Of a stretch of 64,000 bases of DNA, positions 32,901 through 62,884 are shown in pieces. The stretch lies in the IMG/VR virus record IMGVR_UViG_3300020193_000005, positions 32,001 to 96,000 of that record; one strand, given 5' to 3'. Position 1 is the stretch's first letter; every line of letters begins with the position of its first letter. This stretch comes from a virus. The notes under the pieces are model-generated. The model did not search any database. It saw nothing but the letters and a program-made list of their open reading frames with translations, and was not told where the DNA came from. Made by a program: the position numbers and the translations under genes.

Positions 32901-35900
32901 AATCTCAGGCTAGCCAGGGACGGGGGGAAAAATTCCGACAAACTAAGCCATTTCCAGGTTTTCGCGACGGCTCTCGGAATTTCCGAATCGGAACTGTTGG
33001 AGAGACTCGGCATGACGGCGGATAGTGGCGGAAAGGTCTTTTATCTTGCGCCTGGCGTTTTGGAAGGTCTGAGCCCGGACACGGCGAGACAAGCCTACGA
33101 AATTATGTTGATGCTAGACGACGAATACATGACGGACGATATGAAAATCGAGGAGTTGACGACCCTCGACGTAATAGACGCAAGCGAGTTGTTCGCCGAC
33201 GGTCGTCGGGCGACGGCGGCCGAGGTGTACGCCTACTACGTCGATCCAGACTTGTTGGATTTGGGTTATTCTGCGGATCCGGGGATTTACGGTCTTGCTC
33301 CCGGAACGGCCAAAGAACGAGTTCTGGCCCACTACATCTCGGGTTCTCTCCTTCTCCCGAGAGACAAAGATCCAAGCTACGGCGACTCCAACTTCGCGGT
33401 GGCGATGCCGGACGGTTCAAAATTGGTCATAGGTCACGACGTCGGTTCTAGAGGCAGCGCGCGAGCCATTCAGTATCCGAAATACCTGAACATGGATCTG
33501 ACGACGAGGCAAATCGTGGTTCCTTTCGATTTATTCCTCGAAGGACAGAGTCGCTTCGTCAACCGATACAACCAAATCGGGGTTCCGCTCATTCCGGGTA
33601 TTCCCGACATCGGAGACGTAAGACTGAGCGTTCCGAAATTGGTCGCCGTTAGGTATCATCCTGCCGGCGTCGCCAGACAGAGGGGCTCGTATTGGAAGGG
33701 ATCCCCGAACGACGAGCCGATGCGCGTCCTGGCCAGGAAGGTGAATAAGGCGATATTAGACGACACGGATTCGGATTGGTTTGAGGCCATAAGAGACGCG
33801 GTGAGGAAGTACAACCAAGCGTCCAACCAAATGCAAACGGCTCTAGCCGAATGGAGAAAAATCAGGGGTAATCGCAGCAGGGTAAAGGGACCGAAACGCT
33901 CATTCATCATGGAACAGGAAAAATTGGAGGCGATCGGAAAAATAATCACCGAAATACTGGCTCCGAACGCGCATAAAGCCCTCAATAGGGTGCGCGGGAC
34001 CAAGTCCGCTACCGCGAAAACGAGGAACCAGGTTCAACGGATGAGGTTCAACAGGTCGTCGAGCGCCGGAGCGAAGAACTCGCCAGATCTGGAAGAACGA
34101 CAACTTTATCCGACTCACGACGAAGCCGGAAATATTATCGTAAGGAGTCCGGAGACGTTGATCGAGTTGTCGAAACTCAACCACACCGAGGGATTTTTGC
34201 CCATGATCAAGCTCGACGTAAAACCAGATAGCGATTACGAGATTTCTCAACTAACCGAAGATCAAATTAGGAGCCTGGCCAGCATAAGGCTCGCCGAGGA
34301 AACGTTGATTGATCCGAGCGACCCGGATTTCGAACTATCGGAAGAATTGAAAATAGAGAGCTCCTCTGAACAGAACGAGGAGAGAGTGGCGAGGGCATCG
34401 GCCAGAAAAAAAATGTCGCAAAAGGTGGCACTGGATCTCGCCGGCTACACCTACAAACCCGTCGCGGCGACTCAGGTTGAATTCATGGAGTTGCTTGCTG
34501 ACGCCGACGAACTTGACCCCGTACCAGAGGATAAATTGCCGACGAATTATCCCTTAGACGCAGACTGGACCGTGCTGCCGATAGTGAGGGGAATAAATCA
34601 CAAAATAGACGTTAGAAAACCAATTAGAGAAAAATTATTTAAATGGTTTTTCGGCGGAAACAAATTTACCGACGAGGCGGCGAAGGAACTTATTGACGGT
34701 CCTTATTTCGTTCCCTCCGGCTACAACGGCGCCGTCGGCGGCGAAGGTTTGAACTTTTATCACGCCAGCGGTGGCGGCTCCGGTGGCTACACTGGCGGGA
34801 AAAACGACAAAGTCATGATGGCCGTGATGCCGAACGCGAGAATTTTCCACCGCGGTTTGTTGAAGTATCTTGCGACGCAAATGACCGTGCTACACCAAAT
34901 GGTGTCAGCGGCGATCTACTCGGACTCCGGCGTTGAGAGAGAATTACCGATAGACGAAGACGCCTGGAACTCGAAAAACTTCGATTTCGCAGATAATCCG
35001 AAGATCTACTCGCATTTCTACTCGCCGTACGGGGGGGCTTACCAAAACTACGAAGTCAGGTACATCGACGACGACGGAAGCATCGCGCAATATACCGTCT
35101 CGGGCTCTCAGGGTTTCGGCGATTCCCTGGATATATCGAACGTTCAGGCACAAGAACAAGAACCCGTTCCGAAGAAACCGAACCAAGAAGACACAAGAAC
35201 GCTCTCCGAGCAGAGATACGATATTTTCAGAAACCTGTGGTTCGGTATTTTCGGGGAAGAACCTTCGGAGAAATACAGGGGCCTCGACTCGAGCGACGCC
35301 AAAACCATGAACGAACTACTGGAAGAAATAATGAAGAAACTCGTCACGGTCGTTCCGGCCCAAGCCCAGGAAAGACGAAAAAGGGGCGATAGTTTGACGC
35401 CGAAGTCGAGGCGCACGGGGATTGCTGACGACGCCCCAAATAGAAGTTTTCCGATTGATCCGAGATTTTTTGACATTGACTTCGTAGCGGAGACGAGCTT
35501 CAATGCCGACTATTACCTAAGTCCGGAAGAGCTTCGCGAATATTCAATTGCGGAATGGGCGAAGAGAACCAGGGCGCAGATGCTGTCGTGGTTCATTCAG
35601 GCGGAGATAGCCAAGGGTGCCGAAATAGCAAAAGCCAGATTGGCTGGCAAAATCCCGTGGAACGAAGAAATAAGGAAGTATGTCGCCTTCCAGGAGGTGC
35701 TGCTAAGACTTGAGGACGAAGTCGTACTGGGAACGATAATAGGAGTCGACGGATACTGGAGCGACGACGACACGGATGAACTGCTCAAACTCACGGAAAC
35801 ACCGGCAATCTCCGAAAGGTCGATTGGGAGAATGTTTGTTCGGAACAATAAAATGATCTTTTCTCCCGTTTACCAAGGGAACTTGGGCGGGCAATTCATG

Positions 35901-36107
35901 CTTTTGAACAGAACCGCCGTCGTCGCCAACGACCGAACGTTATATCCGTCACAGGTCGGAGAATTTTTGCAGTCCCTGAGGAGCGCGTTCGGCAAGCCCG
36001 GTGGTCGAGAACGGTATGCGCCTACGGGGAACATGTTCAATAATTCAGTAAGGTCTACTTCCTGGTGGAAGAGGCTAGGATTGAAGGCGCCCTATGGCCG
36101 ATCCTGA
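29985..36107 (+). CDS. Giant protein E (2040 aa) with the shared leader peptide, a DTGRM site and a possible C-terminal ART-like toxin domain
   Basis: GGAG RBS and GTG start overlapping the previous gene. Leader at 30645. IVRG..GAVGGEGLNFY..IGVDG..MLLNRTAVV. Confidence 0.85.
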   Translation: MNNDLVFAPIRDVYTDLIFSVLLSDGIKCKAIGNMNQGDDWARWANGSGLSSSLILDSLDYTLRADEFSPLTESSLISVKSILTADAYDALSVSLDGISIKSQPDDDESQADEDLPEPEQEPVSAISVIEVGMSLFDAQFKKLAVDYKANYQNTKIDVSSLALSVKATKSVWANKADGVAWKSLVSNSYSDDPGKLIYGKMYGRGLSRRFAMSVKAVSNMDPRTARDADSDRLVLEGIPTVNLGRGVPDPTPFGAARLARRTRKNRDYAVADGKNRKRRMESRFSAEIRTGGLDSTAVGGRDYLKDDESDSGKTTLNRRMNRRTAGSSTSATARGTSASFDSGNPAQSATRSTRGRFPKTSRIIQKIRNNPPVRRLSENVFGDRKISGKKPRLDKRTMANRSTGWLNKLSERIASASPPKMDTGSPIRENRRRKSPFAGESDTGRMRRVVYSQTTPMRSLFGLRNSMDDDSANRKNLSEYTPTERALILGEAKKVRSDLLSQWRSRLGLSEDADVLEDGILTYIQDQEARGKNVYPLQVQAHNLLILDEMLWDAETKPDKNMDNMWWNLKENARARIVSDSGVLVPSAQKQGDNDLSRPPARPVKTPITAPPPKSADEIVKTQVAANDNPWKMDKNTRDQVMSDLGEWLKNSPEFLTFSDRFGENETEWDEFSPSEQSALKREMGYRENELVNTINEIMTPTSANQKDYRINGRITPESLRNMTNDSYVSLNPGGANLYPDIRSLIAIMDLLGAPNWDVKTQKEAWKAIGNRNRNVVSKRADILRRDLRRGGRYGGVVGERTQVTPKSRATETEKPVERPVEPVTTEPTQTQNPSVRATQSRPSINLPRTARGGAVKTVTLVDEDGKEIVKEVSAFGDPFQYDHEDQYVDRNGTLYLYERQSKLYRNPVTGEYLENYSDPGMEVDVGIDSELEHPPVNQRVQKSAKVGNVVSYPQQNVGGKQQKPRFFSKISNLRLARDGGKNSDKLSHFQVFATALGISESELLERLGMTADSGGKVFYLAPGVLEGLSPDTARQAYEIMLMLDDEYMTDDMKIEELTTLDVIDASELFADGRRATAAEVYAYYVDPDLLDLGYSADPGIYGLAPGTAKERVLAHYISGSLLLPRDKDPSYGDSNFAVAMPDGSKLVIGHDVGSRGSARAIQYPKYLNMDLTTRQIVVPFDLFLEGQSRFVNRYNQIGVPLIPGIPDIGDVRLSVPKLVAVRYHPAGVARQRGSYWKGSPNDEPMRVLARKVNKAILDDTDSDWFEAIRDAVRKYNQASNQMQTALAEWRKIRGNRSRVKGPKRSFIMEQEKLEAIGKIITEILAPNAHKALNRVRGTKSATAKTRNQVQRMRFNRSSSAGAKNSPDLEERQLYPTHDEAGNIIVRSPETLIELSKLNHTEGFLPMIKLDVKPDSDYEISQLTEDQIRSLASIRLAEETLIDPSDPDFELSEELKIESSSEQNEERVARASARKKMSQKVALDLAGYTYKPVAATQVEFMELLADADELDPVPEDKLPTNYPLDADWTVLPIVRGINHKIDVRKPIREKLFKWFFGGNKFTDEAAKELIDGPYFVPSGYNGAVGGEGLNFYHASGGGSGGYTGGKNDKVMMAVMPNARIFHRGLLKYLATQMTVLHQMVSAAIYSDSGVERELPIDEDAWNSKNFDFADNPKIYSHFYSPYGGAYQNYEVRYIDDDGSIAQYTVSGSQGFGDSLDISNVQAQEQEPVPKKPNQEDTRTLSEQRYDIFRNLWFGIFGEEPSEKYRGLDSSDAKTMNELLEEIMKKLVTVVPAQAQERRKRGDSLTPKSRRTGIADDAPNRSFPIDPRFFDIDFVAETSFNADYYLSPEELREYSIAEWAKRTRAQMLSWFIQAEIAKGAEIAKARLAGKIPWNEEIRKYVAFQEVLLRLEDEVVLGTIIGVDGYWSDDDTDELLKLTETPAISERSIGRMFVRNNKMIFSPVYQGNLGGQFMLLNRTAVVANDRTLYPSQVGEFLQSLRSAFGKPGGRERYAPTGNMFNNSVRSTSWWKRLGLKAPYGRS
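30645..30746 (+). repeat. Shared 34-aa N-proximal peptide, copy 3
   Basis: DPRTARDADSDRLVLEGIPTVNLGRGVPDPTPFG. Confidence 0.95.
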
Positions 36108-37474: not shown

Positions 37475-40400
37475 ATGACCGAAGATCACGAACAAGGCGA
37501 TTGTTGCCCGCTCTCGCCGGACGGGCATTCGCCCGAGGAAAAATCGTTTTCTTTCGGTCCGAGACAAGTCAGGCCCGACGAATTTGACGCATTTGTTGAC
37601 AAGGAATCCGCTAGATCGAGGGCTCGACAACTCGGGTGCATAGGAATCAGGCAGTACAGTTCGACCGCCGGCGGTTTGATATGGATGCCCTGTAGTAACG
37701 AATCGGACTACAGAAGGGTGACCGGCAGAAGTCCCCTGGGAAGAAGGGAAAGAAGACGGATTCTTCGAAACGAAATTGAATCCGTCATGAAGAAAAAAGA
37801 TCTGGGCCCGTCACTCGGAATGAGCGACGCAAGGGACATGAACCCCGCCACGGCCATAGACGCCGACCTGGACAGACTCGTACTCGAGGGAATACCGACG
37901 ATCAACCTCGGTCGCGGGGTGCCGGATCCCACTCCGTTCGGAACGGAAATTCCGAAAATTCCGGAAACTCGAAGAGTGTTGGACGCGCCGGAAAAAATTG
38001 AGGCGAGAACGCCGGACGAACCCAGGAAGAAAAAACTGAAGCGGATACGCAAAATAATCGAACCCGTCGTCGCGCCAAAGGCGTCCCCTCTTTCGTCTGC
38101 GGCGAAAAAATTCGGAAAAATCAACTTTCAAAAAATAACGAAGAAAAAGAAACCGAAGAAGAAAAAACTCAACTATTCGACGGTTATCGGCAACATGGAG
38201 AAACTCCTGACGGATTTTCCCGTCGACTACTCCTTCGTTCCGAAACCGATCTCCGACGATGCGAGATCGAAGCTCGGCTTGACGGGGGCGGCGGGACTAC
38301 CGGCCGAAAGAATAAGATCCGGCGCGGCGATCGCGGAAATTTCGGAACAATCCATAAACTCCATGAAAAATATTTTCCAAATGATCGGATCGCAGACCGG
38401 AAATCAATACGCGTCCTTGATTGATTCGCGAATAGCGAAGATGAATTCAGCCCAGAGACCCGTCGCCCCTCGGCCGCCGACCGGATCGGCGACCTTACTG
38501 GGCGCCATTCTCTCCGTTCAGCGTTCCAATAACGAGGAGTTCATCGGAACATACGGAGTTGGGGATTCCGATTTGTTCTCGGAGAATTACGTATCGTCCA
38601 TGGAGAAACTCATATCGCAGGGATTTTTTCCGGAGACCGCGTCCTATCTGGTTTCCAATTTCAACGACATGGACGGAGGGCAGAGAAAAGCGGCGAACAT
38701 GCTCGGCATGTCGGATCGCTCCCTCAGGAGACTGAGGCGGGCGGCCGAGAAATCGAACAAGGTCTTCGGGGTCGGTACGGAAACGATCGGCTTGGCGAAG
38801 GTGGACTCGGATCCTTTTGAGGTGGCGACCGCGGTCCTATTGGCGAGAAACTATCTTCTAGAGAACGCTCGCAAAAACGGCGTCGATTACGACATGTGGC
38901 GGGCCGTCAGCGAATTGACCGGGGCGAACAAGCAGGTCACGCGCCGAATGTTTTCCTCGATTTTTTCCGCGAACAGAGATTATCTCGGGGAGGTTTACGG
39001 GGACTCTCGAAACGTCTCCGAGTACGGTAACGGGCTACTGAGGCTCGCCAGCGGCGCGGCGGCGAACATGTCGGAGAACGACGCGACCGACCTGAACTCG
39101 ATGATGAACGACAGCGATTCCGGGGCTATGGCCATATACATTCCCCCCTCGAATCGGAGACCGAGGGATATCAACCCCAAAGCATCCCTGATTTACCCGA
39201 TGCACAAACGTCAATCCGGTAGTTGGAGCGAAATAGCCAAAGACGTTCAAAAAATTCTGCGAAAGATAAAGAAGAACTTTCGCCACGTGGGGGACGCAGA
39301 ACCGAAGCGATTCTCGTCTCTGGAAAAAGACATCGGGCAGATCCTGTTGGAATTGTTGCCCTACAGTTTCACCGACTACGCGAGGGAGATAGCGATACTT
39401 CAGGCGATACTGAGGGATAGGGTCGAATTCAATCTTCTTCCCATCGGAGAAGTGGGGAGTAACATCGGAGGAAAATTCGTTCCGGACGTACAGAAACTCT
39501 CCGTGTTGGGGCAAAACGGATTGTTGGATTTGTTCGAACCGATCAATGCGGTCAACGCTAGAACGCCAGAAAGAGACCTCGTTCCGAAACCCCTAAGTCT
39601 CGTGAGGGCGATATCTCTTCTAACGGAGGCGCTCGATATCGCCTCCCGAGCCGCTTCCGAAATTCTCGCCACGACCGGCAGGGAGCGATTTTACGGTGAC
39701 ATCGGTTTGAGAACGAGACAGGAACTCGAAAGGCGAGACAAGTCAGCAGTCAATTTTCTAGTTTCCGACGCCTACCGCACCAGAGACTACGCCGAAGACG
39801 TGGATGGGTTCTCCCCGTATGAGCAACTCGTCATTTTCGGTCGAGGAATGAAGACGACAACGGACGACGTCGGGCAGATTCGCGATTACCTCAGCGATCG
39901 CCTGAGAAGATTGGAGAGAATCACCAATTTCGGTGGCACGATGGATGCCAGCAAAATAAACATGTTCGAAGCGACCGAGTCGGGGCTCGGCGACGAAATT
40001 ATCGACGCAATCAGGGGCATAAACGAAGCTTGGTTCAACACTCTTCTCCCCTCCTACGTCAAACCGGTACCGGTGGCGGATCCGTCGACTCGAGAAATTC
40101 GCGAATTGTCCCCGGGGAGTACGGCGAGAAGGTACAGAACGGCGAAACAATTCTCCGACGCGCTGGCCGAGACGTTTGACTCGCTATACATGCGAAACGC
40201 TTCGCCGGATCTCCCGTCATCTCTTTTCGACCCGGAAGGCGAAACGATAGTCAAGGACAGATTCTTCGACGCCTACGAAGAACTTTTGCCGCTGATACTG
40301 GATCCCGAGAATCCGAGTCGCCCAGCGTTTACGTATTCGGAGATAGATGCGGCGATCCGGGAATCTTTCGCCGAACTATTGGATCGAAAGCCAAGAGGCG

Positions 40401-43400
40401 TCGCAGAGTTGATGAAGAATCTATTGAACGACGGTCTCATGGAGGACGTAAAGAGAAACTTAAGGAATAGGTTCGGCGGTTACGACGCGTCCTTGGGCGG
40501 AGATCCGCGGGTGACGGAAAAATTCAGGTTCGTAGACGCTCAATCGATCATACCTCGCCTGACCAGGGAGCGTTCGGCGAGAAGGCTCAGGAGGGCGACC
40601 GCCTCGGTTTCCGACGACGGAGATTCGGGAAGAATGGGCGGTTTTTCCGTTCCGAGACCCATCCAGTCGGCGACCGGCGGAACCCCCGGGGGAATCGGCT
40701 TTGATAAGAATTACGTGCGATCCGGTGATCTCGCCAACGAGATGCGTCAAATAGACGAAAACAGCAAAAGGTTTTGGGACATGGTCGACGACAAGGTGTC
40801 GTTACGGGTGGCGGCGCGCGGATTGGCTCTACTCGAAGACCTAAAAGATCCTCAAAAACTTAGATCACTCATCGACGACATTTCTTCCCTTGCCCCGACG
40901 ATCAACGGCCAGAGACTGGAGCCCTATTCGAATAACGATGCCATCGCCATAGTGAAGGGGATGAAGGATTTATTCGATAGAAACGAATTGTCGGATATTG
41001 CGAATAATTCGGTTACCTACGATCCGGACAGACCGTGGACGGCGAACGTGATGACCTTCCTGATGGGCAGGCAAACGGGGAAAAATCCGCTACCGAAACA
41101 GTTTTTCGGGGCGCACCCCGACAAGCTCAGAGACTTGAGATTCGCGCCCCTTTATTACGACAACAACATGAGAACCCTGAGACCGTTCATGGAGTCTCTA
41201 GGAATCGGATCCGACGGAGAGATGATCAAATTCGCAATGACGGGAAGACCGATTACCGGGAGTAGAAAGCACACGAGTCCGAAGAACAAGGACAATCAGG
41301 AAGCCAATTACGTGGGAGACGTGATGGCGATGTTCGTAGAGGGTCCGGAATCTTTGTCGAGGTACTCGGGCGGCGACAACGAGAACGATCCGAGAAGAAA
41401 CTCCGACGTTGGCATAGGTCAGGCTTTCGAATACGCGTATCAGGTTTATCTGCGCGATCCGAGAAGAAAAATGAACGGTTCCCCGCTTTTGACGGTGGTC
41501 GGCGATCCCGCTAGAGAATTCGCGGTGAGGAACGATTTCCGTAAACGCATTCACGACCTGTGGAACGAAGCGGAAAGAGTCTACGGCAGAGAGATACAGG
41601 GAAGGCCGGCGCCGATTCAGGACGAAGCGTTGTATTACGCGGCGACGCAGGCGGTCAAATTGGCGGAGACGAATTCGTCAAGATTGGTCACGAGAGAAGA
41701 TTTCTCCGAGGTTATGGACGTCATCCTACGAAACGATATGGGAAGGGGATTTAGCACCTTCGGAGAAATCGCAACGGCTATTTTGGGAGAAAAAGCCGAA
41801 GCTTTCCGCGAACTTTCCGGTGAGGATTTGCGAAAAGCCGTAATCAACTCCATGACCCCCGAGTTGAAGAAGAAATTGACGGACAAAAAAAAGAGAATGA
41901 AAACGGCGGAAGAAATCTTCTTCGCCTCGGCTGTGGCGATCGCCGATTTCCCGTGGGATTCGGACGACGATCATTCAAATAAGAAGAAAGAGGATTGGAT
42001 TGAAGTCGGAAAGAGAATCGGGGAGCTGAACCAAGCCTCGGTTTTTTACGACGAATTTTATAAGTATTTGTCGGAAAACGGAGGGGATAACGCCAAGTAT
42101 TTTGACGCGCGATTCGGGAAGTTCATCACATCCAATCAATTGAGCGTGATAGTCGACGACATAGCGCCAGGATTAACCGAGGGAATCTTCGCCGGAGAAT
42201 CGGGTCGCATGTCGAAGGGCGAAATGATGAGCGAGGAAGAATACAAAGCCATTGTCGCGGCTCGCAATGCCATCGTAGAAAGAGTCAGGCGAAGCAGGTT
42301 TTTGTCCTCCCTTGATTTCGCCCAGGAAAAAGTCGACGAAATCAACGAATTAGCCGAGAAGGCCGACAAGCTGATCGAATGGAAGAGAGCGAGACTCCTG
42401 AGCCTTGTCACGCCGCGCGATGGCGCACTGACGGACGACGACTGGTTCGTCTACGCCGCGATAGGCGGTTTCTATCGACCCTTCCGATCGATATTCCTGC
42501 AAAGATTTGACGAAAAAAGCGCTCCGATCAGCGTGACAACGGCGAGAGATAAGCTTCGCACGTTCATAGCCGAGGCCGGATCGGACGTCGTTAGGGAACT
42601 GTTCGGATGGGTTTCGACCGCGATCAGGGGGGAGGAAGACGAGCCGACCGAGGACGGAGAAACCAAGTTTAGAACGGTCTACGAGCTGACCTCCGACGGC
42701 GGAGTATCGCCGATTTTGGATCGACCCGACCTATTCGAGCGATCCGACGACGCAAGAAACGAAATATCGTACATAGATCCGAAGGCCAAAGAACCGATCA
42801 TGGTGAGAGCCGAAGACGGGAGCCTGATACCGAAACAGAAATCCCCGGCCGAATTGAGGAAAGCCAGCACTCCCATCAAGGTATTGACTCCCTACGGAAA
42901 ACTCAACAAAGCGATACTTGACGGAGCGCTAAGAGCCGGTCTCGTCGCGATGCCGTCGGCGGACGAGGCCGAGAACGAATTACCCCTAGATATAGCACTC
43001 TCCGTCTTCGGGGGAGAATTGCCTCTCATCGAATTGCCGAAATCCTGGCACGAACCGCTGAGCGACGAGGAGCTTGAGCTCACCTTCACGCGAGCCGATT
43101 TGGCCGAAATAAGTAAGCAAGTAAAATTGTTCAACAGAAGATTTGCGCTGGAGATGCTCACAGGGGAAAAGGTTTCCCCGGACGTTAGCCAGAAGGTAGT
43201 CCGCGGAAAAGCGGAATTTATCGCCACGCCGGAACAGTTGAGTCAGAATCAGGCGTTGGAAGCCATGAACCCGCTGAATCAATCGAGCGTAAAGTCCTTC
43301 GTGAATACTCTTTCGCCCGAACAGTTGAAAACGATCGGTGCGTTGTTCGGATCCGATCAATCCTCCGCCATCAAGCTGACGCCGGAAATGTTGCTCGCCG

Positions 43401-46400
43401 CCAACGGCGGGTTGGATGAAGTCAATCTGAGCGTCGCCAAATTAATCGTTGAGGCGGCGAAAAAAGTCGCATTTCTGAGGAGAACGGAAAACGGCGACGA
43501 TTTGATAAACCAAAGAGTTGCGACCATCCTCGGCGACTCATCTTTGGGCGACAACGAAAAAAAGGTGATAACCGCCGTCGGCTCCGGCGACTCGGACGCG
43601 GCGAAAAAAGCCTTCATTGATCTCCCGAGAGAGTCCGCGGCTTCCTTGTCTCGATCGTTGCTCAAACCCATTTACGACCTATCGGCGAAGGATGCTCAGG
43701 GAAATTTGGTCGCCGGGATCGCCGACGTCACGCAGACGGACGCGGAATCGGGTCTGCAGTGGACGAGAAATCTACTGGAACATGTTTTGTCGATGCCCGA
43801 ACCTTTGCAGTTTTTGGAGGAGTTCAGGAAGGGGTTGAAAACGGGTGCGGCGAGACGCGCGGTGATAGAGGTTGGCACCTCCAGAACGGCAGACCCGGGA
43901 GCAGAAACAACGGCTCTCCGAACCGTCAAACTCGACGGAGAGTGGATGAAGCGTTTCGTGATCGGAAAACCCGTCGACGGAAAAGGGTACATAATAATGA
44001 GAGTTCTGGACGGCCAGGACAGAACGAGATTGGACGAAATGCGAGAAAAAATACAAAATTTCTCCGGTTCCTCTAGCGAAGCCGCCGAAATAATCTCGTT
44101 GATGACCGACGAAGAAGTAACGAATTTTCTCATCAACAAGGTTTACCCGGCTTTGGTGGCGAAAGGAATGCGCGACAAATTCTCCTTCGGAATGGCCCAA
44201 GTGACGGCGGAACTTGACGCAAAAATGAGATCCATAGGCAGAAGACTGCGTAAATCCTCTTCCGTTACGGAAATCCTCGACGCGACGGAGGCGGCGATAG
44301 CCGAGGCGTTCGACGGCAGAACCAGGGACATGCTGACCCGGGAGGAACTCGTACAGTACGGGGATCTCGTTGCGTACTTCGCCGCCGGCGGAAAGCAGAT
44401 TCTCCCTCCGGAAAAATACCGATCGGCTCTTGCGGAAATGGCGGCGGAGCGACGAAGAGTGGTGCAAAGAATAAAGGATCGGGCGGACGAGGAAACGAGG
44501 GAGGAAGAGGAACTATACGAGGCGATGATGGATCCGCCCATCGAGCAGTCTCTCCTGGAGGCCTTGCAAAGAGCGAGGGATCCGCAAACCATCGCCGATT
44601 TGGCGGAGCAGGAAGAGCTGTACAGGATCATGGGCGGCGGCAGAATACCCGGATCCGGTTTGAGGCCTTACGACGGAGTAGACGAGAATCTGGGGGAGTC
44701 GACTTTCTGGAAAATGTTCCGCCCCGACCCGGTGACGGACGACGATTCCGAACAGAACCGTTTCGGGGAGGGCGATCCGTTCGGACAATCCGATACCGGA
44801 CGCATGACCATGCCGCTGCCTCCCCCGCCCCCCGACCCGGCGGTCAACATCGGGGATAGGGAGTATTCGAGACTGACCAAGGAGAACGCCGAAAGAACTT
44901 TCGGCGCATGGACATATCAGATGATATTCAGAAACTATTCGACCATATTCGGGGGAAGGGGTACCGGGGCACCGCACATATCTCCGCAATCATATCCGAC
45001 AGCGCCGCTGACCAGAAATCCCTATCATTACGACAGGGCTCGACGCGCGATAGACGCGATGTGGAGATTGACGACGGGCGACGTGCCGGAGGCCGTCCGT
45101 ATACGTCTGGAGAACGACGAGAAAGTTCAACTGGAACAAGCCAAGGAGTGGTTGGACGATTTGATTTGGGTCACCGCGGAATACATGCGCATGGCGGGCA
45201 TTGACGTGCCGGACGACTACGACCCGAAATTGGCCGCGAACAAGAACAATCCGATACAACGCATCTTCTTGGACAACATGGCGGAGGCGACTCTTCTCGC
45301 CCTTTACTTCCCGTTCACTTTCAAGATACCGGTGAGGAGTTCGGGAACGGAAGGCGCCGCCGATTGGGTTCCACAGGACGACCAGGATTTCAATGTGGAA
45401 GGGTTGAATTCGGCGGACAGACCAAATCTTATTTACGCCGCTTATCACTCGATCGTGGCCGGGGACTTCTCGGTGTCGAGCGGCATCGATTCCGGAGGAA
45501 GGGACATCTCCAGGTGGATATTCAACCCGAAACCGCAAAACGAAGGACCCGTTACCCCGCTCGGACCCATAGAAACGGAAATTTACGGATCACGGGATGA
45601 CGGAACCCCGCCGACAGACGTCGTGAGCGACGCCACTTCGGGCGGCGAACAAGACGACGGTTCGCCGTTCCTGGAGGATCCGCTAATCAAAGAACTTACC
45701 GATTTCATCGCCACGATTATCCTGAATCCGTTTGGCGGCAGTGAATACTCGTTCAACGAATGGCTCGATCAGGCTAATCGGTACTCAAAAATTCTGGGCT
45801 CTTCGCACTACGAGAAGAGAGGTAGCGGAAAAGGCCTGATTGATCTCGTGACAGAAGATCGTAGCGTCATCAACGTGGACAAGGTGTTGTCCGAGATAAT
45901 CAAGACCGGCGGCGCAGGCGACGAATTCTCGACGCCGGATTCCCTGATTTCCTTCGGGGATCTATCCATCGCCGATCCGGACTACGGTCCTTCGTTCCCG
46001 GGTGTTTCGGACGAAATCAACGCTCCGTCCATGTTCGACAACATGTCCCCTCAGGAGATATCAAAACAAAGAAAAATCGGAATATCTTCGACCAGCAAGG
46101 CGAGCCAGGCCGCGCGAGCGGGATGGTGGGCTTCGCTTCAGTCCGGAAAACACCCGATGGAGATAGCTTCCTCGGAAAAAACCAGCGACGGAATCAACTG
46201 GCATCCGGACATAGTGGAAGAGGGAATACGCAAACACGCGAAGCAAAACGGCATTGCGTCTTCTGTCGTTGACGCGGCTTTCGACGCCGCCGAAAAGGCA
46301 TACGAAGCGAAAAATTTGAGCACGGCGAAACTCAAATCGATCGCCGCGATAAGAGAAATAGTCGACGCGAACCCGAACAATCTGGCGAAAGTTTTCAACG

Positions 46401-49400
46401 ATTTGGAAGAACTACTGAAACAAAGAGAGTCGGAGAGAAAAGAAACGTCGAATCAATACCAGGAAAGAATAAGAAGACCGATTCTGGCCCACGCCGCGAC
46501 GCTGAAAGCCTACGAAGAAATCCTGAAGGTAAAGCTGAAAGAATTGAACGACTTGATGGCCGGCGATAAGACGTCAAAATCCGAGGCGGTAGACAAATAC
46601 AGAAAAGCAGTCGTAGGCGTGTATGCCGACATCGTCAATATCACCAGAGCGATCAGGAAGATGCATAGAGACTCCGTTGCGTCGAAAAGGGCATTGGATG
46701 CAATCGACGAAGAGATTGAACAAATTCGGGACTACGTCCAAAGAGCCGCGAAGGCCGTAAACGTCTCGGTAAAAGCAATAAATCAAAGAATGCAAATGAT
46801 TCGAGCGATAAAGAACGGAATAGCCGCCAGTGGCACGGACAGCGGAGCGATGTCGATTCCGATGAAGTTCGGGAGCGAAATTCTCTACATTCCGGCGAAT
46901 CCGAGAATCACGCGGGAAAAACCGCAGTCCCTTCTGTCGTCTTTCGAGAAGGCGTTGGTCAGGGCGGCCGCGACCATCGGCGACGGCACCAACGAAATCC
47001 CCGAACAGGCCTCGCTGGTTCTCCCGAATCTGCGAATGATCCGCTCTGGTTTGTTCGAGGAGTTCGTCGGTTTGCCGAATAGAAATTCGGTTCGGTCGAT
47101 AGGAAACTCCCTCAGGGTTGCGCTCAACAAATTCGCCTCGGCGGTTACCGCCGAGGAATTCCTGAGAGAGTCGATGGGCGACAGATTCGTAAATTTCCGC
47201 TCCTTGGGCTTCAATCTTCTCCCGGAAAAGACTAGAAGAATCGCCGAGGACGCCATCCTCGACGGAACCATGGTTTCTTCCGCCAATAACGGCGTCACCG
47301 AAAACGACGCCATAGGCGCGATGATCATGCACGCCGAAGCAACGGAGGCGGTCAGGAACGCCATAATCGGGAGCTCGATACGGGACGCGGCGGAATACCT
47401 AAACGTCTCCCAGGACACGGTGCGAGACGCGATAGAGACGGAAAGCAAGTTGGCCGATTTGACAAGAGACGTGACGAGGGCTCATTCCCTGGCGAGACGT
47501 CTATCCAAGTCGAACGATAGGAGATACACGTCGAACTTCGTGAGACGAAAGTTTTACGACCTAATCCAGGACGGGTTCCCGGAGGAAAGACTTCTGTATC
47601 CCTCAACGTTCTCGAGAAATCAGGCGGTGGCCGCAGCACAAAATGCCTTGAGGGTCAACGAAATTTACGGTCTCACGGAACAGGAACTAATGGCCGCTTC
47701 CGGATCGGACGAAGAAATATCTAGGTTGATTTCCTACCTAAGAACCAGGGAAGCCAAAGCGTCGGCGAGAAAGTTCAACGACTTGCCAGAAAACTGGACG
47801 AGAATGTCGTTCGCCGAAAAGAACTCTTGGTTGTCGTCCGAGGAGGGCCTGCGCGCTTTCGGAAGATTTGGAGTAATGGTTCAGGCACAGTTGATTCAAC
47901 AAGAAATAAACGATTTCGGAATACCCGACGGTCCAGTTTTTGCGATGGGAACGAAGATATTCGAAAAAGAAACGATGATTCCGTCGATGATAAACGAAAG
48001 AGGAGTTAGCAGGCTGTTCGTCGCCGACCCGTTGACATCGTACGATCTGCTTCGTTCGGGGAATAATTCGTACTTGATGCTTGAGGATAGATTGCCGTCG
48101 TTGTACGAGATATCCGACGAGGGTATGGCGAGGTTCCTGAATTCCTCTCCGGAATTGATTTCCGAATTCAGAAACGGAAATCTCATGCTTTCGGAAAAAG
48201 CCGCCGAAAAAATTGCCAAAGCCGTCGGCTTGGATTACGCGGAAATATGGGGTATGCGCAGACCGCAGATAGCTACCAACGAGGGGAATTTCTACTGGCT
48301 GGCGAGCAACTGGGCGCTCGTGGGTCCGACGATATCGGCGATCAACGACGGAACGCCGACCAATTCCATATCCGATTTGGTGAACGACGGGGGGAGAAAG
48401 ATACCGCAGAAAGTAAGCGAGTTGATTTCCTCCGGGGTGGTCGACGCTTTCTACGACGCGGTCAATCCGAACGGAATAACCCAGGCCGACGCCGACGGGT
48501 ACATCGCGTCGCTGGGCAAAAAGAAACGAAAGGAAGTAATATCGATTCTGGCTTCCGCTGGTTACGGGGAATCCGAAATCGTGGCGAGCACCGGTTTCAA
48601 CCCGAACACGGTTAGAAACGTTCTCAGGGAGACGAGAATGTCGGGCATGGCTCCCGCGGCCGTCGGTTCACGAGAGTGGACGATGAGCAACGCTCGGGCC
48701 ATCAGGGCGGACTCCAAGAACGGCGTATCCAAGCGGGAGTTGATGAGAAAGTACGGAATAGGCGCCAGGAGCCTGAACTCGATTCTTTCCGAGGGGTCTT
48801 CGGTCGCGTACAGGTCGGCTTACCGTTCGGATTCCGGAGCGATGGCGAGCAGAAGACTGAACGACGAGGCGAAGGTCGCAAGACGCGAGGCGACGGATCA
48901 AGACAAAATCGTCGTCGGCGAGGAGATGGGAATAACCAAGGACGTTATGGGGAACGAAATACGGGACATACCCGGATTCCACCCGATAGTCGCGCGCGTG
49001 GCGAATCCTTTCGAGGCGGAAAACGGAGCCGGGCTCAACGCTGACGGAACCAATAAGGTCGAGTCGCCGGAAAATACCGTGATTGAAAACATCGTTATGA
49101 TGTGGAAGTCAATTACCGATCTCTTCGTGAACTACGCCCTATCCGGGGGAAGAATAAGACTTCCCTCCGACAAATTCCGTTACGTCGCCGGATTCGGAGA
49201 AGACGTCCTGGTGGATCTGGTCTGGGCGGACAAAGTATCCAACATGGGTAGGGAGACGAACTCCTACGGAACGACGTACGCTAAAACTCAGCTTGACGCG
49301 ATGCGGGGGGAATTCAGTTTCGCCATCAAAACTTTGCTGAAAAAAGTGATGGAAGAAAAAGAACTTCGGGGGGGAATCGACGGTCTTGCCAACGCGATCG

Positions 49401-52400
49401 CCGGTCAGCTCGGTCTCGTCCCGAGTTTGTTCGGATACATGTTCGCCATGCACGAAAATTTGGACGAGGTAATACAAGATTCGACTCCGGGTAGATCGCG
49501 CACCCCGTTCAAGCCGTTCGGCACGCAATACAAACGAGCCCTCAAGGCGGTGCTCGCGGCCGACGACCTCTCTCAAACAATTAACGGGGTTCGTAAATCC
49601 GAGGACGCAATCAGCCCGCTCTTGCGCGATCCGAGACAGATGATGAAGTACATTCCGGAGGATCTGAAGCGACGTTACACGGAGACCATTACAACGACCG
49701 ACTCCGAACCGGCACAGGTTGAGGTGTCGGGATTCAACGGACAAGAAGACGTGCGGGTTCTCGCCTACGTGGCATCCACAATCGCCGACCTCGCAAGTGG
49801 CGACGTTGATCGATACTTCGATGAGACGTCCCCTGGTGACACGACGATGTATTTCAACAGTCCGGAAGGAAAATTCATCGCCCTGATGGTGGCGCTGGGC
49901 AACATCAGACCGACATTTAGGTATCTACCGTACGCAAACACCCTCGGTATGTACTACAGCGGAAACGAAAACGACGAAGTGCTTGACGGTTCGGGTTTCG
50001 TGCGTGAGGTAATTTCGGAGATAGAACAAAACTACGCCGCGTGGGCGGAGCGATTCATTGATCGGTTGACCCCGATGGTGAACGACGGGGATCAAAATAT
50101 GCGACTTTACGACGTGTCAAATTTCCGTGATCCGCTTACGGATGGATCGAATTGGGGAAAGAGAGTTTTCCTCGACGGAACAAATTTCAACAACAGCATC
50201 AAAGATGCGCTATTCCTGCAAGGGCAAATCGACGACTCCGATCAGCCGACTTCCATGGTGTTGCAACTGTCGATGACTGGAGACGGGAGCGTCGTGCCGA
50301 GTTTGTCGGTCCTGGATTCGATCATTGCGCCGATGGAGGAGGCTTATTTTTTCGCTCCAGATATCAGGGACGGCATACCGGTCTCGAATTCGGGATTTTC
50401 GTTCGTCATGCCGTCGCCGATGCGGGAAACAATCAGGAGAGCGAGGGGCGACATAACCGCCGAGGGCATATTGGCGGCCGGAGAAATGGGCATAAGCATC
50501 CCTTCGTCCGAGATCGTCGAAGAGAAGTTGAGCAATTTCATTACGCCCGAAAATTACGGGGGAGACACCGAATATTATCCGGGCATAGAAAATATGATCC
50601 GTTGGATGGTGGAACGAGGACTCGCCTCGGAGATAGTAAGGGGTCTCGATTCTCAATCGCCCGGCAGTAAGTACTCAGTCGATCCCGCCGTATTGGAAGA
50701 AATAGACATTTTGACGAGAAGCGAACCCGACTTGTTTCCGAGCGGCGGCCGCTCCGCCCCCATAGATTACACGCTCTCCCCGGATTTGGCGGCTTTGGAA
50801 AAGCTAGTGAAAGCGCCGAACGTATCCACGTCGGTTCCGCTATTCAAGAGGCAGGATTACTTCCACCTAAGGGACGCCATCCCCTATCTCGTATCGCTAC
50901 TCGAGGTGATGAAACAGCGGAATACGGCGACGTTGCCGCCTTCGTACGATCTCATGCCGATCCTGAACGCAGAAACAGGCGACGTCATAGGTATGTCCCC
51001 CGGCAACATTGTTGATTCGGGTATCGATCCGACGGTATCCCTGAACCCGAATTACTGGCCGAGGGCGACGAGATTTTCACAGATGATCATAGAAGCCGTA
51101 CAGCAATCCGAAAAAATCGCCGGCTTTCCCGCGGAGCTAAAACAAATAGTCAACGAAATGACCCCGAGGGAGTTTGCCCTTCTCGATTGGATCGTTTCCA
51201 TGAATCAGTCGTTACAACCCATTTTTGAGTTGTGGGACACGAGCACGCTTGTGGCATTCGAACAAGAAGGATCGCATCCTTCGTTCAACACTAGGCGCAC
51301 GATGGCGGGCACAACCGAGTATCCGTCCAGCATCTTCTCGACTGGCGAGAGGGCGTCCGGACTGCCGCTCGTAGTTCCGCCGAAAAACGTCAGAGGTCAG
51401 CAATTGACGGCGTTCGATGGCCAGGATCAGGTGCTGGATCAGGTTCCTTTCGGTTCGGAAAGAATTGAGTTCGGCGGAACGCAACCCAACAGCGTCGTCG
51501 ACGATCAGGTCTACGCCTACGCAATGGATCAAATATTCAAAAAACTCGCGTCCTACGGATCCAAGTCGTCGGAAACTTTGGTAAACGAAGTGATTTTCAA
51601 CTCTCCGGTAATCCAAACGCTAAAAAACAAAACGCAGATAGACGACGACGACCTGAGAACGCTCCTTGACGACGGCAAGGAATCCGGGGAAGTGGTGGCG
51701 ATGATTTTGTCCGACCTTTTGGCCGAGGGGATCATGCGGGCGGCCGTTAGAGAATCCGGAGCGAATATAAGGTACGCTCCGTTCTCGAGCGGAGACGAAT
51801 CAATCAGGGTCGACGGCGTTCGGGGAGAAAATCTCCGCAAGTTTTTGGACGCGGTCCGACCCAGGCGAGATTTTTACGGATTTTGGTCGATGTACGGACC
51901 CGACGTCGTTTATTCCCTTCCCAACAACGACGAGCCTTATCTTCCGATTTGGGAAGACGACCGCAAACTGACGGAGTTTTTCGGCGTTCGACCTTACGCA
52001 CCGGAAATTTTCTTCCCATACGGATCAACGGAAAAACTGGAGAACGACGCCTCCCTGAAGGGCAGTCTCGTAGGAACCAACGAATTGTTCGACGCTCTAC
52101 AAAGAAGTCCGTCCCGCTGGTGGTGGGATAGACAGGCGCCGCTAATCGGATCAACGGCAGACGATGGAAACGTTACGACCCCGGAAGCGATCGTCGACGA
52201 TGCCGAAAGAACGGCGTCCCAGTACGTATTGAACATGTCCCCGGACGAGCTGATCGAATACCTTCTCTCCGTCCAAGAGAGCGCATCGGGAAGAAGAACG
52301 GAAGAATCGGGAGTCGCAGTTAGACCGCCGAATTTACCGTCGATTTTGCGACGAGCTTTCGGCGACATGAACGATTTGACTTTCGAAAACATTCCGTATA

Positions 52401-57263: not shown

Positions 57264-58637
57264 ATGTCGGAAGACACGAGCAGACTCCGCGAGTTGCAGT
57301 CAGCGCTCCGCGAGAAGATGCAGCAAAACAAGGACATCGCGGATTCCTTCCGCGTTGACAACGGAGCGGTCGTCGTTACGACCGAGCAGAAGTCGGCGTT
57401 CGACAAGAACATGTCCGACATCCGCGAGATCAAGGGACTCATCGAGGGTCTCGAGTCGCTGAAGAACATTCAGGACTGGGGTTCGGCTCCGGTCGACGCT
57501 TCGGTCGCTGCTCAAGCAGCCGCCCATGCTCCTCAGCAGGCTCCCCGCCCGTCAAGCGTCGGACAAGCGTTCGTCGAATCGGTCGAGTTCAAGGCGCTCA
57601 ACAACGGACGCAACGGCGCGAACATGCCGTCGGCGTTCCAGTACCAGGGTGCCCTGACGGCCTACGGTCAGAAGGACATCTACACGGCGCTGCCGACGAC
57701 GGGTCTCGTGGCTCGCGCCGGCGGTCTTGATGACTTCGGCACGATCCAGCGCGATCCGATGGTCACCCCACCGCAGCGCACGAAGCGCGTCCGCGACCTT
57801 TTCCCGGTCCGTACGACTTCGGCCGCGGTGATCGAGTACTTCCAGCACATCGGCTTCACCACACCGGTGACCGGTGCCGTTGGCGCTGATCGCACTCGCG
57901 GAACCAACAACGCAGCCGCGGTCGCCGAGCGCACCAGCGGAGCGTTCACGTCCAAGCCGCAGTCGAGCTTCCAGTTCGTCGGTCAACAGGCTCCCGTTCG
58001 CACTCTCGCGCACTGGGAAGCCGCGCACCGCAACGTGCTGGCGGATGAACCGCAGCTTCGTTCGATCATCGACAACGAGCTCATGTACGGCTTGCGCCTT
58101 CAGGAGGACTCGCAGATTCTCAGCGGAGACGGCACCGGCGAGAACCTTCTCGGCGTGCTGAACACCCAGGGCGTTCAGGAATACTCCTGGTCGTCGGGTG
58201 CCAACGCTTCGGCGAACTCAAAGGCGGACACCAGGGCGGATGCGATTCGTCGCGCCGCTACCTTGGCGTTCCTCGCCTACTACGAACCAAGCGGCGTGAT
58301 TCTCCACCCCAGTGACTGGGAGAGAATCGAGCTGGCGAAGGACGGAAACGGTCAGTATCTCGTGGCGGTCTCCGTCGCGTTGGGCGGCGAGCCCCGCGTC
58401 TGGCGCATCCCAGTGGTCGAAACCCCGGCGATCCCGGTGGGTACGGCGCTGGTCGGTGCGTTCGGCACCGGAGCCCAGCTGTACGACCGCGAGCAGGCGA
58501 GCATCAGGGTCAGCGAGCAACACGCCGACTTCTTCGTCCGCAACGCAATCGTCATCCTGGCCGAGCAGCGCCTGGCGCTGGCGGTCAAGCGTCCGGAGTC
58601 GTTCGTCAAGGTCACGTTCGACAACGCGCCAGCCTGA
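57264..58637 (+). CDS. Major capsid protein, HK97 fold, with an N-terminal coiled-coil delta domain
   Basis: AGGAGG RBS at 57251-57256 supports the ATG at 57264. VRDLFPV, VRTLAHW, LADEPQLRSIIDNELMYGL..ED.QILSGDGTGENLLG, FVRNAIVILAEQRLALAVKRPESFVK. Confidence 0.96.
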   Translation: MSEDTSRLRELQSALREKMQQNKDIADSFRVDNGAVVVTTEQKSAFDKNMSDIREIKGLIEGLESLKNIQDWGSAPVDASVAAQAAAHAPQQAPRPSSVGQAFVESVEFKALNNGRNGANMPSAFQYQGALTAYGQKDIYTALPTTGLVARAGGLDDFGTIQRDPMVTPPQRTKRVRDLFPVRTTSAAVIEYFQHIGFTTPVTGAVGADRTRGTNNAAAVAERTSGAFTSKPQSSFQFVGQQAPVRTLAHWEAAHRNVLADEPQLRSIIDNELMYGLRLQEDSQILSGDGTGENLLGVLNTQGVQEYSWSSGANASANSKADTRADAIRRAATLAFLAYYEPSGVILHPSDWERIELAKDGNGQYLVAVSVALGGEPRVWRIPVVETPAIPVGTALVGAFGTGAQLYDREQASIRVSEQHADFFVRNAIVILAEQRLALAVKRPESFVKVTFDNAPA

Positions 58638-59790: not shown

Positions 59791-60702
59791 CTAACGCAGT
59801 TCCCTTAGAAGGCAAATTCCGACGACGCGGGCGAGCTCCACCGGAACCGCGTTCCCGATCATTTGTTCGATCTCCGATTTGTTTCCTACGAGCCGAAATG
59901 AGCGCGGAAAGGTTTGGATGCGAGCTCGCTCGGCCATCGTGAGCGGACGAAGGATCGGCGTCACTTCGCACGCGTCGTTTGGATGACCCGGGTAGCCAGG
60001 GGGAACCGGACGATTCACTCCGCGAATCGTTGCGCTGGGCTCGTCGATCGAATAAACCGCGCGCCTTGAATAATTTCGGGGGTGTCGGTAGTAGTACTCG
60101 ATACCGAACTCGTCGCCCAAGTACTCCCTGACGGTCATCGGTTGCGAACTGGCCATTGCCGCGACTTTCTTGGCGATACCGCCTTCATCCGCGCCGTTGA
60201 GAATACCTACGCAGAAAAGCCTTTTCCTTATCTGCGGAACACCGAAGAAGCTGGCGTCGAGAAGCAACTCCGTTATCCGATAACCCGATTTTGAAAGGAT
60301 TGATTTCGCCTTGGCATAGGCAACGCTCAGCCGCGCTCGTTCAACGTTCTCCATCACGAACGCCGCTGGTTTTATTGTCGCAACAATTTGAGCGAAAGAA
60401 TTGGTTAGATCGGCACGACCGGCTTCAATTCGTTTTCCGGCGCTCGAAAAGTCCTGACAGGGCGGACCGCCGATGATTACCTCCGGTCGCAGGATCTTCA
60501 GTTCGGGCACGACCGAGGTCACCCTGGAGAGGTCGGTCTTGAGAATCGGGTGATTGAAGTTGGTCGAGTAGCAGTTGACGGCAGGATCCCAGGAGTCGAA
60601 CGCGGCGACGACTTCAAACCCAGCTCTCTCAAAACCGAGACTCATGCCACCGCAACCGGAAAATAGGTCGACCACGCGTGGTTTGGCTCGTCGTCCCGTC
60701 AA
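59791..60702 (-). CDS. DNA (cytosine-5) methyltransferase
   Basis: Motif I DLFSGCGG, IV GGPPCQDFS, VI MENV, VIII PQIRKR, X IGNAVP. Confidence 0.96.
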   Translation of the reverse strand: MTGRRAKPRVVDLFSGCGGMSLGFERAGFEVVAAFDSWDPAVNCYSTNFNHPILKTDLSRVTSVVPELKILRPEVIIGGPPCQDFSSAGKRIEAGRADLTNSFAQIVATIKPAAFVMENVERARLSVAYAKAKSILSKSGYRITELLLDASFFGVPQIRKRLFCVGILNGADEGGIAKKVAAMASSQPMTVREYLGDEFGIEYYYRHPRNYSRRAVYSIDEPSATIRGVNRPVPPGYPGHPNDACEVTPILRPLTMAERARIQTFPRSFRLVGNKSEIEQMIGNAVPVELARVVGICLLRELR

Positions 60703-62645: not shown

Positions 62646-62884
62646 GCGACGACCTTGTTTTTGGATCTGATTTTGCGGCGCTGATTTTCCGTGGTTCCAC
62701 CCCAAATACCGTAGAGAATCTCGTTGTCCAACGCGTATTTCAAACACTCCTCCCTAACTACGCAAGCGCTACACAGGGCGAGGGCGCCTTTCACGGAATG
62801 CTTGTTGGCTGGGAAAAAGGACACTTTCGGGGTGTCGGCGCAATTGGCTTTCTTGCGCCACGATTGACCGGGTACGAAAAACAT
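62642..62884 (-). CDS. whiB: WhiB-family Fe-S transcription factor
   Basis: WRKKANC..FFP..ALCSACVVREECL.YAL....GIWGGTTE.QR. An AAGGAG RBS supports the ATG at 62884. Confidence 0.93.
   Translation of the reverse strand: MFFVPGQSWRKKANCADTPKVSFFPANKHSVKGALALCSACVVREECLKYALDNEILYGIWGGTTENQRRKIRSKNKVVA

Follow-up and report, generated by a model that had tools for sequence, protein, structure and literature searches.

RNA-virus polyproteins are encoded in one open reading frame (ORF) that gives many products, a short consensus between them being read by a co-evolving viral protease of the 3C, NS3 or nsp5 type. Several systems described in phages are related to the arrangement analyzed here. Polyvalent proteins, known from phages and conjugative elements, carry 2–15 domains per polypeptide, and their packaging, injection and processing by a zincin-like metallopeptidase (MPTase) were predicted (Iyer, Burroughs, Anand, de Souza and Aravind 2017; PMC5512222). 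The internal proteins of T4 (cut by gp21) and the head proteins of phiKZ and SPN3US (cut by gp175/gp245 at A-x-E) are targeted to the procapsid, have one cleavage consensus and are ejected with the DNA (PMC10052503, PMC9026906); of the 14 cuts mapped in SPN3US, 13 take off an N-terminal propeptide. MuF polymorphic toxins of temperate phages combine a head-associated domain with variable C-terminal toxins that are thought to be injected (PMC5576092). In the literature we found no description of phage polyproteins with cleavage linkers. Here we analyzed a window of 64,000 nucleotides (nt), bases 32001–96000 of a single 109,136-bp viral contig (IMG/VR record IMGVR_UViG_3300020193_000005), in which ORF F (37475–56875, + strand; coordinates are those of the window unless stated otherwise) encodes a 6466-amino-acid (aa) polyprotein of 11 units directly 5′ of the capsid gene. 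We consider it likely that F is a head-packaged polyvalent polyprotein that is cut at its linkers.

ORF F begins with ATG. Five related contigs encode colinear orthologues with the same N-terminus (M-x-E...GDCCP), in support of this start position. The original prediction had split F at the Met of a recurrent motif, and the unit sizes that it reported are exact: cutting before the motif Met yields 551, 502, 525, 865, 682, 664, 1657, 172, 171, 315 and 362 aa (U1–U11, in this order). As the scissile bond may lie on either side of Met, these limits are good to one or two residues. The ten matches to [DE][ST]G[ARS]M comprise six DSGAM and one each of DSGRM, ESGRM, DTGRM and DSGSM, all on the + strand, at 39116–39130 (site 1, DSGAM), 40622–40636 (site 2, DSGRM), 42197–42211 (site 3, ESGRM), 44792–44806 (site 4, DTGRM), 46838–46852 (site 5, DSGAM), 48830–48844 (site 6, DSGAM), 53801–53815 (site 7, DSGAM), 54317–54331 (site 8, DSGSM), 54830–54844 (site 9, DSGAM) and 55775–55789 (site 10, DSGAM). 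Residue-shuffled versions of F contained 0.07 such sites on average versus the 10 observed. The motif is all or none in F: beside the 10 perfect sites, just three near-misses matching at four of five positions were found, and these lack the Gly/Ser-rich context.

Beyond F, the motif is confined to the giant proteins of the head module, which are designated here as ORFs A–F. A six-frame scan of the whole 109-kb genome returned 29 sites, all on the + strand and all within ORFs A, B, C, E and F, and found no linker site in the tape measure or capsid protein. Among the 5-mers of the head-module proteins (19,577 aa in total), DSGAM ranks first with 21 copies, and the extended logo of all genome sites is (G/S)-D-S-G-(A/R)-M-(S/R/A/T). 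Met is invariant at 29/29 sites and in five close relatives. D-[ST]-G-A is also the signature of retropepsins; a retropepsin active site was rejected, since the motif lies in Gly/Ser/Asp-rich linkers between unrelated modules, no conserved barrel is present, and relatives use AGM or TASM.

The codons of the motif vary synonymously: Ser is encoded by TCC, TCG, TCT or AGC, Arg by AGG, AGA, CGG or CGC, and Gly and Ala by every codon available to them. Because this variation is free, it is the peptide, rather than DNA or RNA, that is under selection. The result bears on two alternatives. The first is that the repeats serve recombination at the DNA level, as joints at which modules are shuffled, and do nothing in the protein. 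Between phages, shuffling at the linkers is indeed evident, as described below, but the 15 nt differ synonymously from site to site and offer little DNA identity for recombination, and conservation is seen at the amino-acid level; we assign this explanation a negligible probability. The second is that translation starts internally at the motif Mets, so that one mRNA gives the units as separate products and the residues upstream reflect a ribosome-binding signal. The invariance of Met speaks for it, as do its position as the first start codon of a split-off ORF in two relatives (L042 and L044, see below) and the Gly codons, which make the upstream bases somewhat G-rich. However, synonymous changes occur at every codon of the motif, which speaks against an RNA signal, and predicted anti-Shine-Dalgarno pairing before the motif Mets averages −3.8 kcal/mol compared with −3.0 at other internal ATGs (p = 0.06) and −5.3 at real starts. 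Moreover, relatives use the Met-free border motifs LSSG, STRS and LTGA[ILV], and why 19.4 kb should be free of stop codons would go unexplained. Internal initiation is thus very improbable, although a shade less so than DNA-level joints.

The units separated by the motif differ in content. U1 (37475–39127) consists of a Cys-rich, DUF3721-like N-terminus (Pfam match at residues 43–76, below the cut-off), a tag shared with other head-module proteins, a Lys-rich stretch and a body assigned to no family. U2 (39128–40633), U3 (40634–42208), U4 (42209–44803), U5 (44804–46849) and U7 (48842–53812) belong to no known family, and U7, the largest unit, has no internal site. U6 (46850–48841) contains several helix-turn-helix (HTH)-like elements. 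U8 (53813–54328) is a Clp-N (ClpC N-terminal) domain without an ATPase, U9 (54329–54841) is helical and of no known family, U10 (54842–55786) is a predicted Nudix hydrolase with helical extensions on either side, and U11 (55787–56872) is a zeta/PezT-like P-loop kinase. Searches of Pfam, PHROGs and NCBIfam gave no match for the body of U1, U2–U5, U7 or U9, and the ESM Atlas gave no usable match for U5 or U7. That these units may be new effector folds, as the original prediction had suggested, is speculative, since no confident fold was obtained for them.

Three of the four domain assignments in the original prediction were borne out. Pfam NUDIX matched U10 at residues 98–223 (E 1.8e-9, 38.2 bits versus a cut-off of 21.1), and the Nudix box G-x5-E-x7-REATEEVGL is intact. 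Pfam Zeta_toxin matched U11 at residues 100–280 (E 2.2e-10, 40.8 bits versus a cut-off of 22.3), and the Walker A motif GGPSGAGKS is intact. Clp-N was missed when the single U8 sequence was searched against Pfam, and a six-sequence profile of U8 matched the N-domains of ClpC2 and ClpC1 in the PDB (E 3.6e-11, positions 9–133 of 173). As for the four HTH elements claimed for U6, HTH_23 at 167–199 exceeded the Pfam cut-off and 422–473 was found with PHROGs (E 1e-5), while those at 574–594 and 608–651 are weak. An AlphaFold2 (AF2) model of U8–U11, built from a six-sequence alignment, had a mean predicted local distance difference test (pLDDT) score of 53.7, with 44% of residues below 50. Foldseek nonetheless recognized three separate folds in it, namely the ClpC1 N-terminal domain (TM 0.80), the Nudix domains of NrtR and ADP-ribose pyrophosphatase for U10 (TM 0.79), and zeta/PezT for U11 (1gvn_B and 2p5t_B, TM 0.51–0.59). 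The Nudix, zeta and Clp-N domains fill 40–75% of their units. Of the roughly 15 Pfam domains detected in A, B, C and F, not one extends across a site, and neither does any PHROG or PDB-profile hit. The original prediction would have been refuted by domains or folds that span the motif, and these were therefore not seen.

Comparison with related phages showed that the joints are conserved while the motif changes. The capsid protein has 286 relatives in IMG/VR; among cultured phages, the capsids of Gordonia phages of the genus Bendigovirus and of Brevibacterium phage Cantare are about 46% identical to it. DSGAM is absent from the giant ORFs upstream of the capsid gene in the relatives, each of which has a recurrent peptide of its own: [TAN][ED]AGM in L001 (G001), [IP]TASM in L002 (G002), [AGP]EAGM in L003 (G003), x[DN]AGM in L005 (G004), GP[VIST]G[SRKA]M in L008 (G005), ITG[AS]M in L051, GGLTGA[MILV] in L041, (R)LSSG in L031 and L014, and STRS in L061. 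Five contigs were extended to give complete final polyproteins of 4975–5553 aa that are colinear with F. The capsids of these five relatives are 73–78% identical to the one encoded here, whereas the F polyproteins are just 23–40% identical over most of their length, the best-conserved parts being the N-terminal ~160 aa (residues 1–166, 59–71%) and the Nudix unit (49–60%).

When F and its orthologues were aligned with MAFFT, the six joints at the 3′ end of F shared columns with the relatives' own motifs, and the counterpart of site 1 is an xAAM variant in four of the five relatives. The motif is uniform within each genome and differs between relatives at the same joints. In unit-wise BLAST of U4–U11, every match fell within one motif-delimited interval of the relative, with a single overhang of two residues; U4 and U5 each map to one interval per relative, U6 maps 1:1 to intervals, and the first ~575 aa of U7 have no counterpart. 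The original prediction had held that the fit between units and domains was strong internal evidence for protein boundaries. That argument, which concerns 3 of the 11 units, is only moderate; it is mainly the comparative data that strongly support the motif as a border of modules, and from these borders protein ends would arise by cleavage.

Colinear orthologues cannot prove true module borders; proof of this kind can come from modules in shuffled contexts. In L051, more than 1100 residues separate the Nudix module from zeta, which is downstream; the Nudix module is flanked by GISGAM and GITGAM, and zeta begins right after KITGAM. The Nudix module is found between KITGSM and RLTGRM in L062 and ends at GLTGA and GITGA in L041 and L072, respectively; the zeta module of L056 begins after ISGRM. 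In L042 and L044, zeta has an ORF of its own, in which translation could start no earlier than at the Met aligned with the Met of U11. This Met is preceded in frame by the local motif (PKLSGAM and KIAGSM, respectively), and ORFs of 1088 aa and 1471 aa in these loci are punctuated by RRVTGSM, RKLSGSM, TRVTGSM and KKITGSM. The ORFs of 707 aa and 710 aa located 5′ of the split zeta end on CCAAAAAAAGC(A/G)TAA (L042:8560–8700 and L044:8610–8735), and from the A-run the −1 frame is open for 29–35 codons, through the local linker into the zeta ORF. A programmed −1 frameshift at CCAAAAAAAG that fuses the upstream protein with zeta is a plausible candidate in both loci. With or without a frameshift, the genetic break of the split zeta is in the linker.

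These results bear on the question of whether the linkers are cut at all. The motif could be an uncleaved inter-domain linker or a docking motif for the capsid interior, the portal, a chaperone or a host factor, in which case F would stay one giant multi-domain protein. Giant uncleaved virion proteins do exist, the N4 virion RNA polymerase being packaged uncut by the account given in PMC5512222, and a short linear motif in a disordered linker would likewise show conservation at the peptide level. However, a passive linker needs no strict pentapeptide that is uniform in a genome and swapped as a set in relatives. In addition, the motif occurs at every module border and nowhere else, it persists before the Met of the split-off module, and ejection through a tail would be difficult for a 6466-aa chain with eleven folded modules. 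We regard an uncut F as unlikely; the linker peptide is most likely a cutting site that releases proteins packed in the capsid and injected.

The N4 precedent is one of several points that weigh against a cut polyprotein. Cleavage, packaging and ejection are proposals based on sequence. The −1 frameshift may fuse the separate zeta ORF of L042 and L044 with the protein encoded 5′ of it, in which case this ORF would not be independent. Stand-alone homologues with the same limits as the units are represented by this zeta ORF, and essentially none was found for U8, U9 or U10: a word-indexed search of 5.8 billion proteins yielded no near-length homologue of U8 or U9 and, for U10, one 275-aa match on a 1.3-kb contig, which is probably a fragment. 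In the AF2 model, the joints 172/173, 343/344 and 658/659 lie inside stretches with pLDDT below 50 (157–230, 325–374 and 632–739), which is weak evidence (about 0.09 by chance) because the model is poor.

The setting of F in the genome is consistent with a cargo function. The phage is a myovirus, given its sheath, baseplate-J and terminase genes. Its head block, which extends from the portal gene with a C-terminal Mu-F domain to the HK97-fold major capsid gene (57204–58637, + strand; Phage_capsid E 6e-43; no linker motif), spans 61 kb or 56% of the genome, and the six giants A–F total about 17,900 aa. All of them are on the + strand. ORF A (3750 aa; 3′ part at 1–7041, with the start upstream of the window) has 10 linker sites, 7 of them within the window, and its N-terminus carries a Peptidase_S78 prohead protease at residues 32–177 followed by DUF6321 and DUF4314. 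ORF B (2180 aa, 9729–16271) has 5 sites, ORF C (2527 aa, 16587–24170) has 3, and ORF E (2040 aa, 29985–36107) has 1. Five of the giants (A, B, D, E and F) each have, close to the N-terminus, a single copy of a near-identical 36-aa tag, (D)MNPxTAxDADLDRLVLEGIPx[IV]NLGRG[VI]PDPTPFG; in F it covers residues 121–156 (nt 37835–37942). The same tag is found near the N-terminus of many database proteins of 1000–3700 aa and is disordered in the model of D. By analogy with the capsid targeting sequence of T4, we infer that the tag is a capsid-targeting signal. It is directly followed by a variant site in B (PFGADSGLM) and D (PFGNVGAM), and D also has VSGRM at residues 118–122. The tag may be clipped off by the same enzyme that would act on the linkers.

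Other features of the region were noted. The portal fusion (L082:13427–15715, genome 25427–27715, upstream of the window) comprises Phage_portal at residues 74–397 and Phage_Mu_F at 670–758. Tandem low-complexity repeats are present in ORF C, with seven copies of (G)TPSPG (19812–19935), and in ORF A, with eight copies of PEKVP just after the first DSGAM site (genome 30186–30429, upstream of the window). The capsid gene is closely followed, on the − strand at 59791–62747, by genes for a C-5 cytosine DNA methylase (303 aa) and a SNF2-family helicase (682 aa).

Which enzyme would cut the linkers was considered next to the evidence for the two proteases of the head module. ORF D (24175–27045, + strand) encodes a tagged 956-aa protein with HEFGH (nt 25603–25617) and a C-terminal NxETYAE, and is a candidate linker protease. 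Its orthologues are single genes of 893–981 aa in 5/5 relatives, about 30% identical, and each has a small-small-Met site just after the tag. Thirteen sequences of the family share invariant H477, E478, G480, H481, D484, E511 and N887-x-E889-x-Y-A-E893, and the family is clade-specific, with about 11 representatives among 1.84 billion sequences. HExGH and NxExYAE are about 400 residues apart, with a long helical insert between them. The AF2 model of D had a pLDDT of 67 and a predicted TM score (pTM) of 0.62, and its best match among 48,161 chains was the catalytic domain of anthrax lethal factor (Z 9.8, root-mean-square deviation 4.1 Å, 195 residues), a Z score that is barely above those of generic helical bundles and within the chance range for helical models. 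D may be a split lethal-factor-like zincin. ORFs B and C also carry HExxH motifs; no similarity was detectable between D and the HEPKH-bearing part of ORF C. No MPTase-type domain was found within F.

The second protease is the S78 prohead protease of ORF A, which would cut the sites by the classical T4/phiKZ scheme with Met as P1. This enzyme is present in cis, as the first domain of polyprotein A, and prohead proteases of the T4 and phiKZ types cut many head proteins at one motif (PMC10052503). The delta-domain junction of the capsid proteins consists of K, rarely R, M or Y, followed by [ST][IVL]G; here it is K|S[IV]G. In HK97, the delta-domain site is K|S. The K/R/M before S/T of the capsid junction, with Met in two relatives (RAM|TVG and RHM|SIG), resembles the cargo sites, in which M is followed by S, R, A or T. 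However, the capsid lacks the cargo motif, and its junction is constant in 58/80 loci whatever the cargo motif. The S78 domain is 85–95% identical in G001 and G004, which use other motifs, and more distant relatives use Met-free ones. We regard cutting of the linkers by this classical scheme as rather doubtful, though less so than an uncut F.

Among candidate enzymes, we rank D first, at a little under an even chance, because S78 and the capsid junction are near-constant while the cargo motif changes, and D is fast-evolving and tagged and has an invariant HExxH. S78 ranks second, with a distinctly lower probability, and another protease or a host protease ranks third, slightly lower again. The points that count on the other side, in addition to the chance-range score of the D model, are as follows. 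D had no Pfam match, no match in PDB sequence or profile searches and no Foldseek match below E 0.001, and tblastn against 50,697 records of cultured phages revealed no homologue. Relatives that carry S78 share the small-small-Met core with DSGAM, their motifs being different only in the residues before it, and Met is at the presumed P1 of the capsid junction in two relatives.

A cultured relative has a comparable gene arrangement. In Gordonia phage DalanDe (L081, ON755184.1, 22424–27325), a 1633-aa 'capsid maturation protease' is encoded directly upstream of the capsid gene; about 1100 aa without an assigned family precede its S78 domain, and small-small-Met-[ST] sites are scattered in it (GGGM-T, NGAM-R, SGRM-T and DTGM-T). 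No enriched k-mer was found in this 1633-aa protein. Processing of this type could be studied in the laboratory with DalanDe as a model.

Taken together, we propose the following mechanism for a cut F. The protein would consist of an N-terminal targeting region and eleven independently evolving modules on short disordered linkers ending in (G/S)-D-S-G-(A/R)-M. It would be made late and loaded into the procapsid via the tag, along with ORFs A–E. A phage endopeptidase that reads the pentapeptide would then cut F at its ten linkers, inside the head or after ejection, on one or the other side of Met. The pieces, namely Clp-N, Nudix, the zeta-like kinase, the HTH array and seven others, would be ejected with the DNA and act early in the host; the Clp-N, Nudix and zeta-kinase units point to a possible early interference with host proteolysis, nucleotide metabolism or cell-wall metabolism. 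The invariant Met could give the pieces a native-like N-terminus or double as a start codon once a module splits off. More tentatively, and with a confidence well short of even, we suggest that a myovirus clade, probably of actinobacterial hosts, uses a lineage-private 'cleavage code'. Each linker peptide would be paired with its own fast-evolving, capsid-targeted, lethal-factor-like zincin, and dozens of swappable effector modules in a few giant genes (more than half of the genome) would be loaded via one 36-aa tag and freed as separate proteins, the protease and its sites co-evolving as in the polyprotein strategy of RNA viruses, here in a double-stranded DNA (dsDNA) phage.

If the linkers are cut, about 40 separate proteins, most of unknown fold, would be produced from six genes of one phage. 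The idea of polyvalent proteins, so far a loose prediction, would then become a defined grammar that can be read from tag, linker and protease, and in metagenomes the motif alone could mark the limits of hundreds of phage effector modules that are as yet unknown. Motifs that differ between lineages would provide a natural system for studying co-evolution of a protease and its sites, and the pair of tag and linker could be used to load chosen proteins into phage capsids and release them.

Compared with known systems, F is like polyvalent proteins in that many unrelated conflict-type domains are present in one polypeptide encoded beside virion genes. Unlike in polyvalent proteins, the modules of F are split by one strict pentapeptide, whereas no linker motif is described in PMC5512222, where the word 'linker' is absent; the candidate peptidase is the separate tagged protein D and not a domain of F; and zeta and Clp-N do not appear in the text of PMC5512222, which has Nudix just as a neighboring or fused domain. 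Procapsid targeting, one consensus and ejection with DNA, as in T4 and in phiKZ and SPN3US, are proposed here, and an N-terminal sequence common to the cargo proteins, the 36-aa tag with its presumed targeting role, is another likeness to cargo of that type. However, capsid and cargo share one motif in the T4/phiKZ type, while the capsid junction here differs from the cargo motif, and the sites of F, unlike those of SPN3US, separate unrelated modules. A MuF domain is present as in the MuF toxins, here fused to the portal; each of those proteins carries a single toxin module without repeated cleavage linkers and is accompanied by an immunity gene, a layout not seen here. RNA-virus polyproteins comprise replication and structural proteins in eukaryotic hosts, whereas F is accessory cargo of a dsDNA tailed phage with putative processing. 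The concept of polyvalent proteins is already known; what appears to be new is a strict, lineage-specific linker code in capsid-cargo polyproteins, on an extreme scale.

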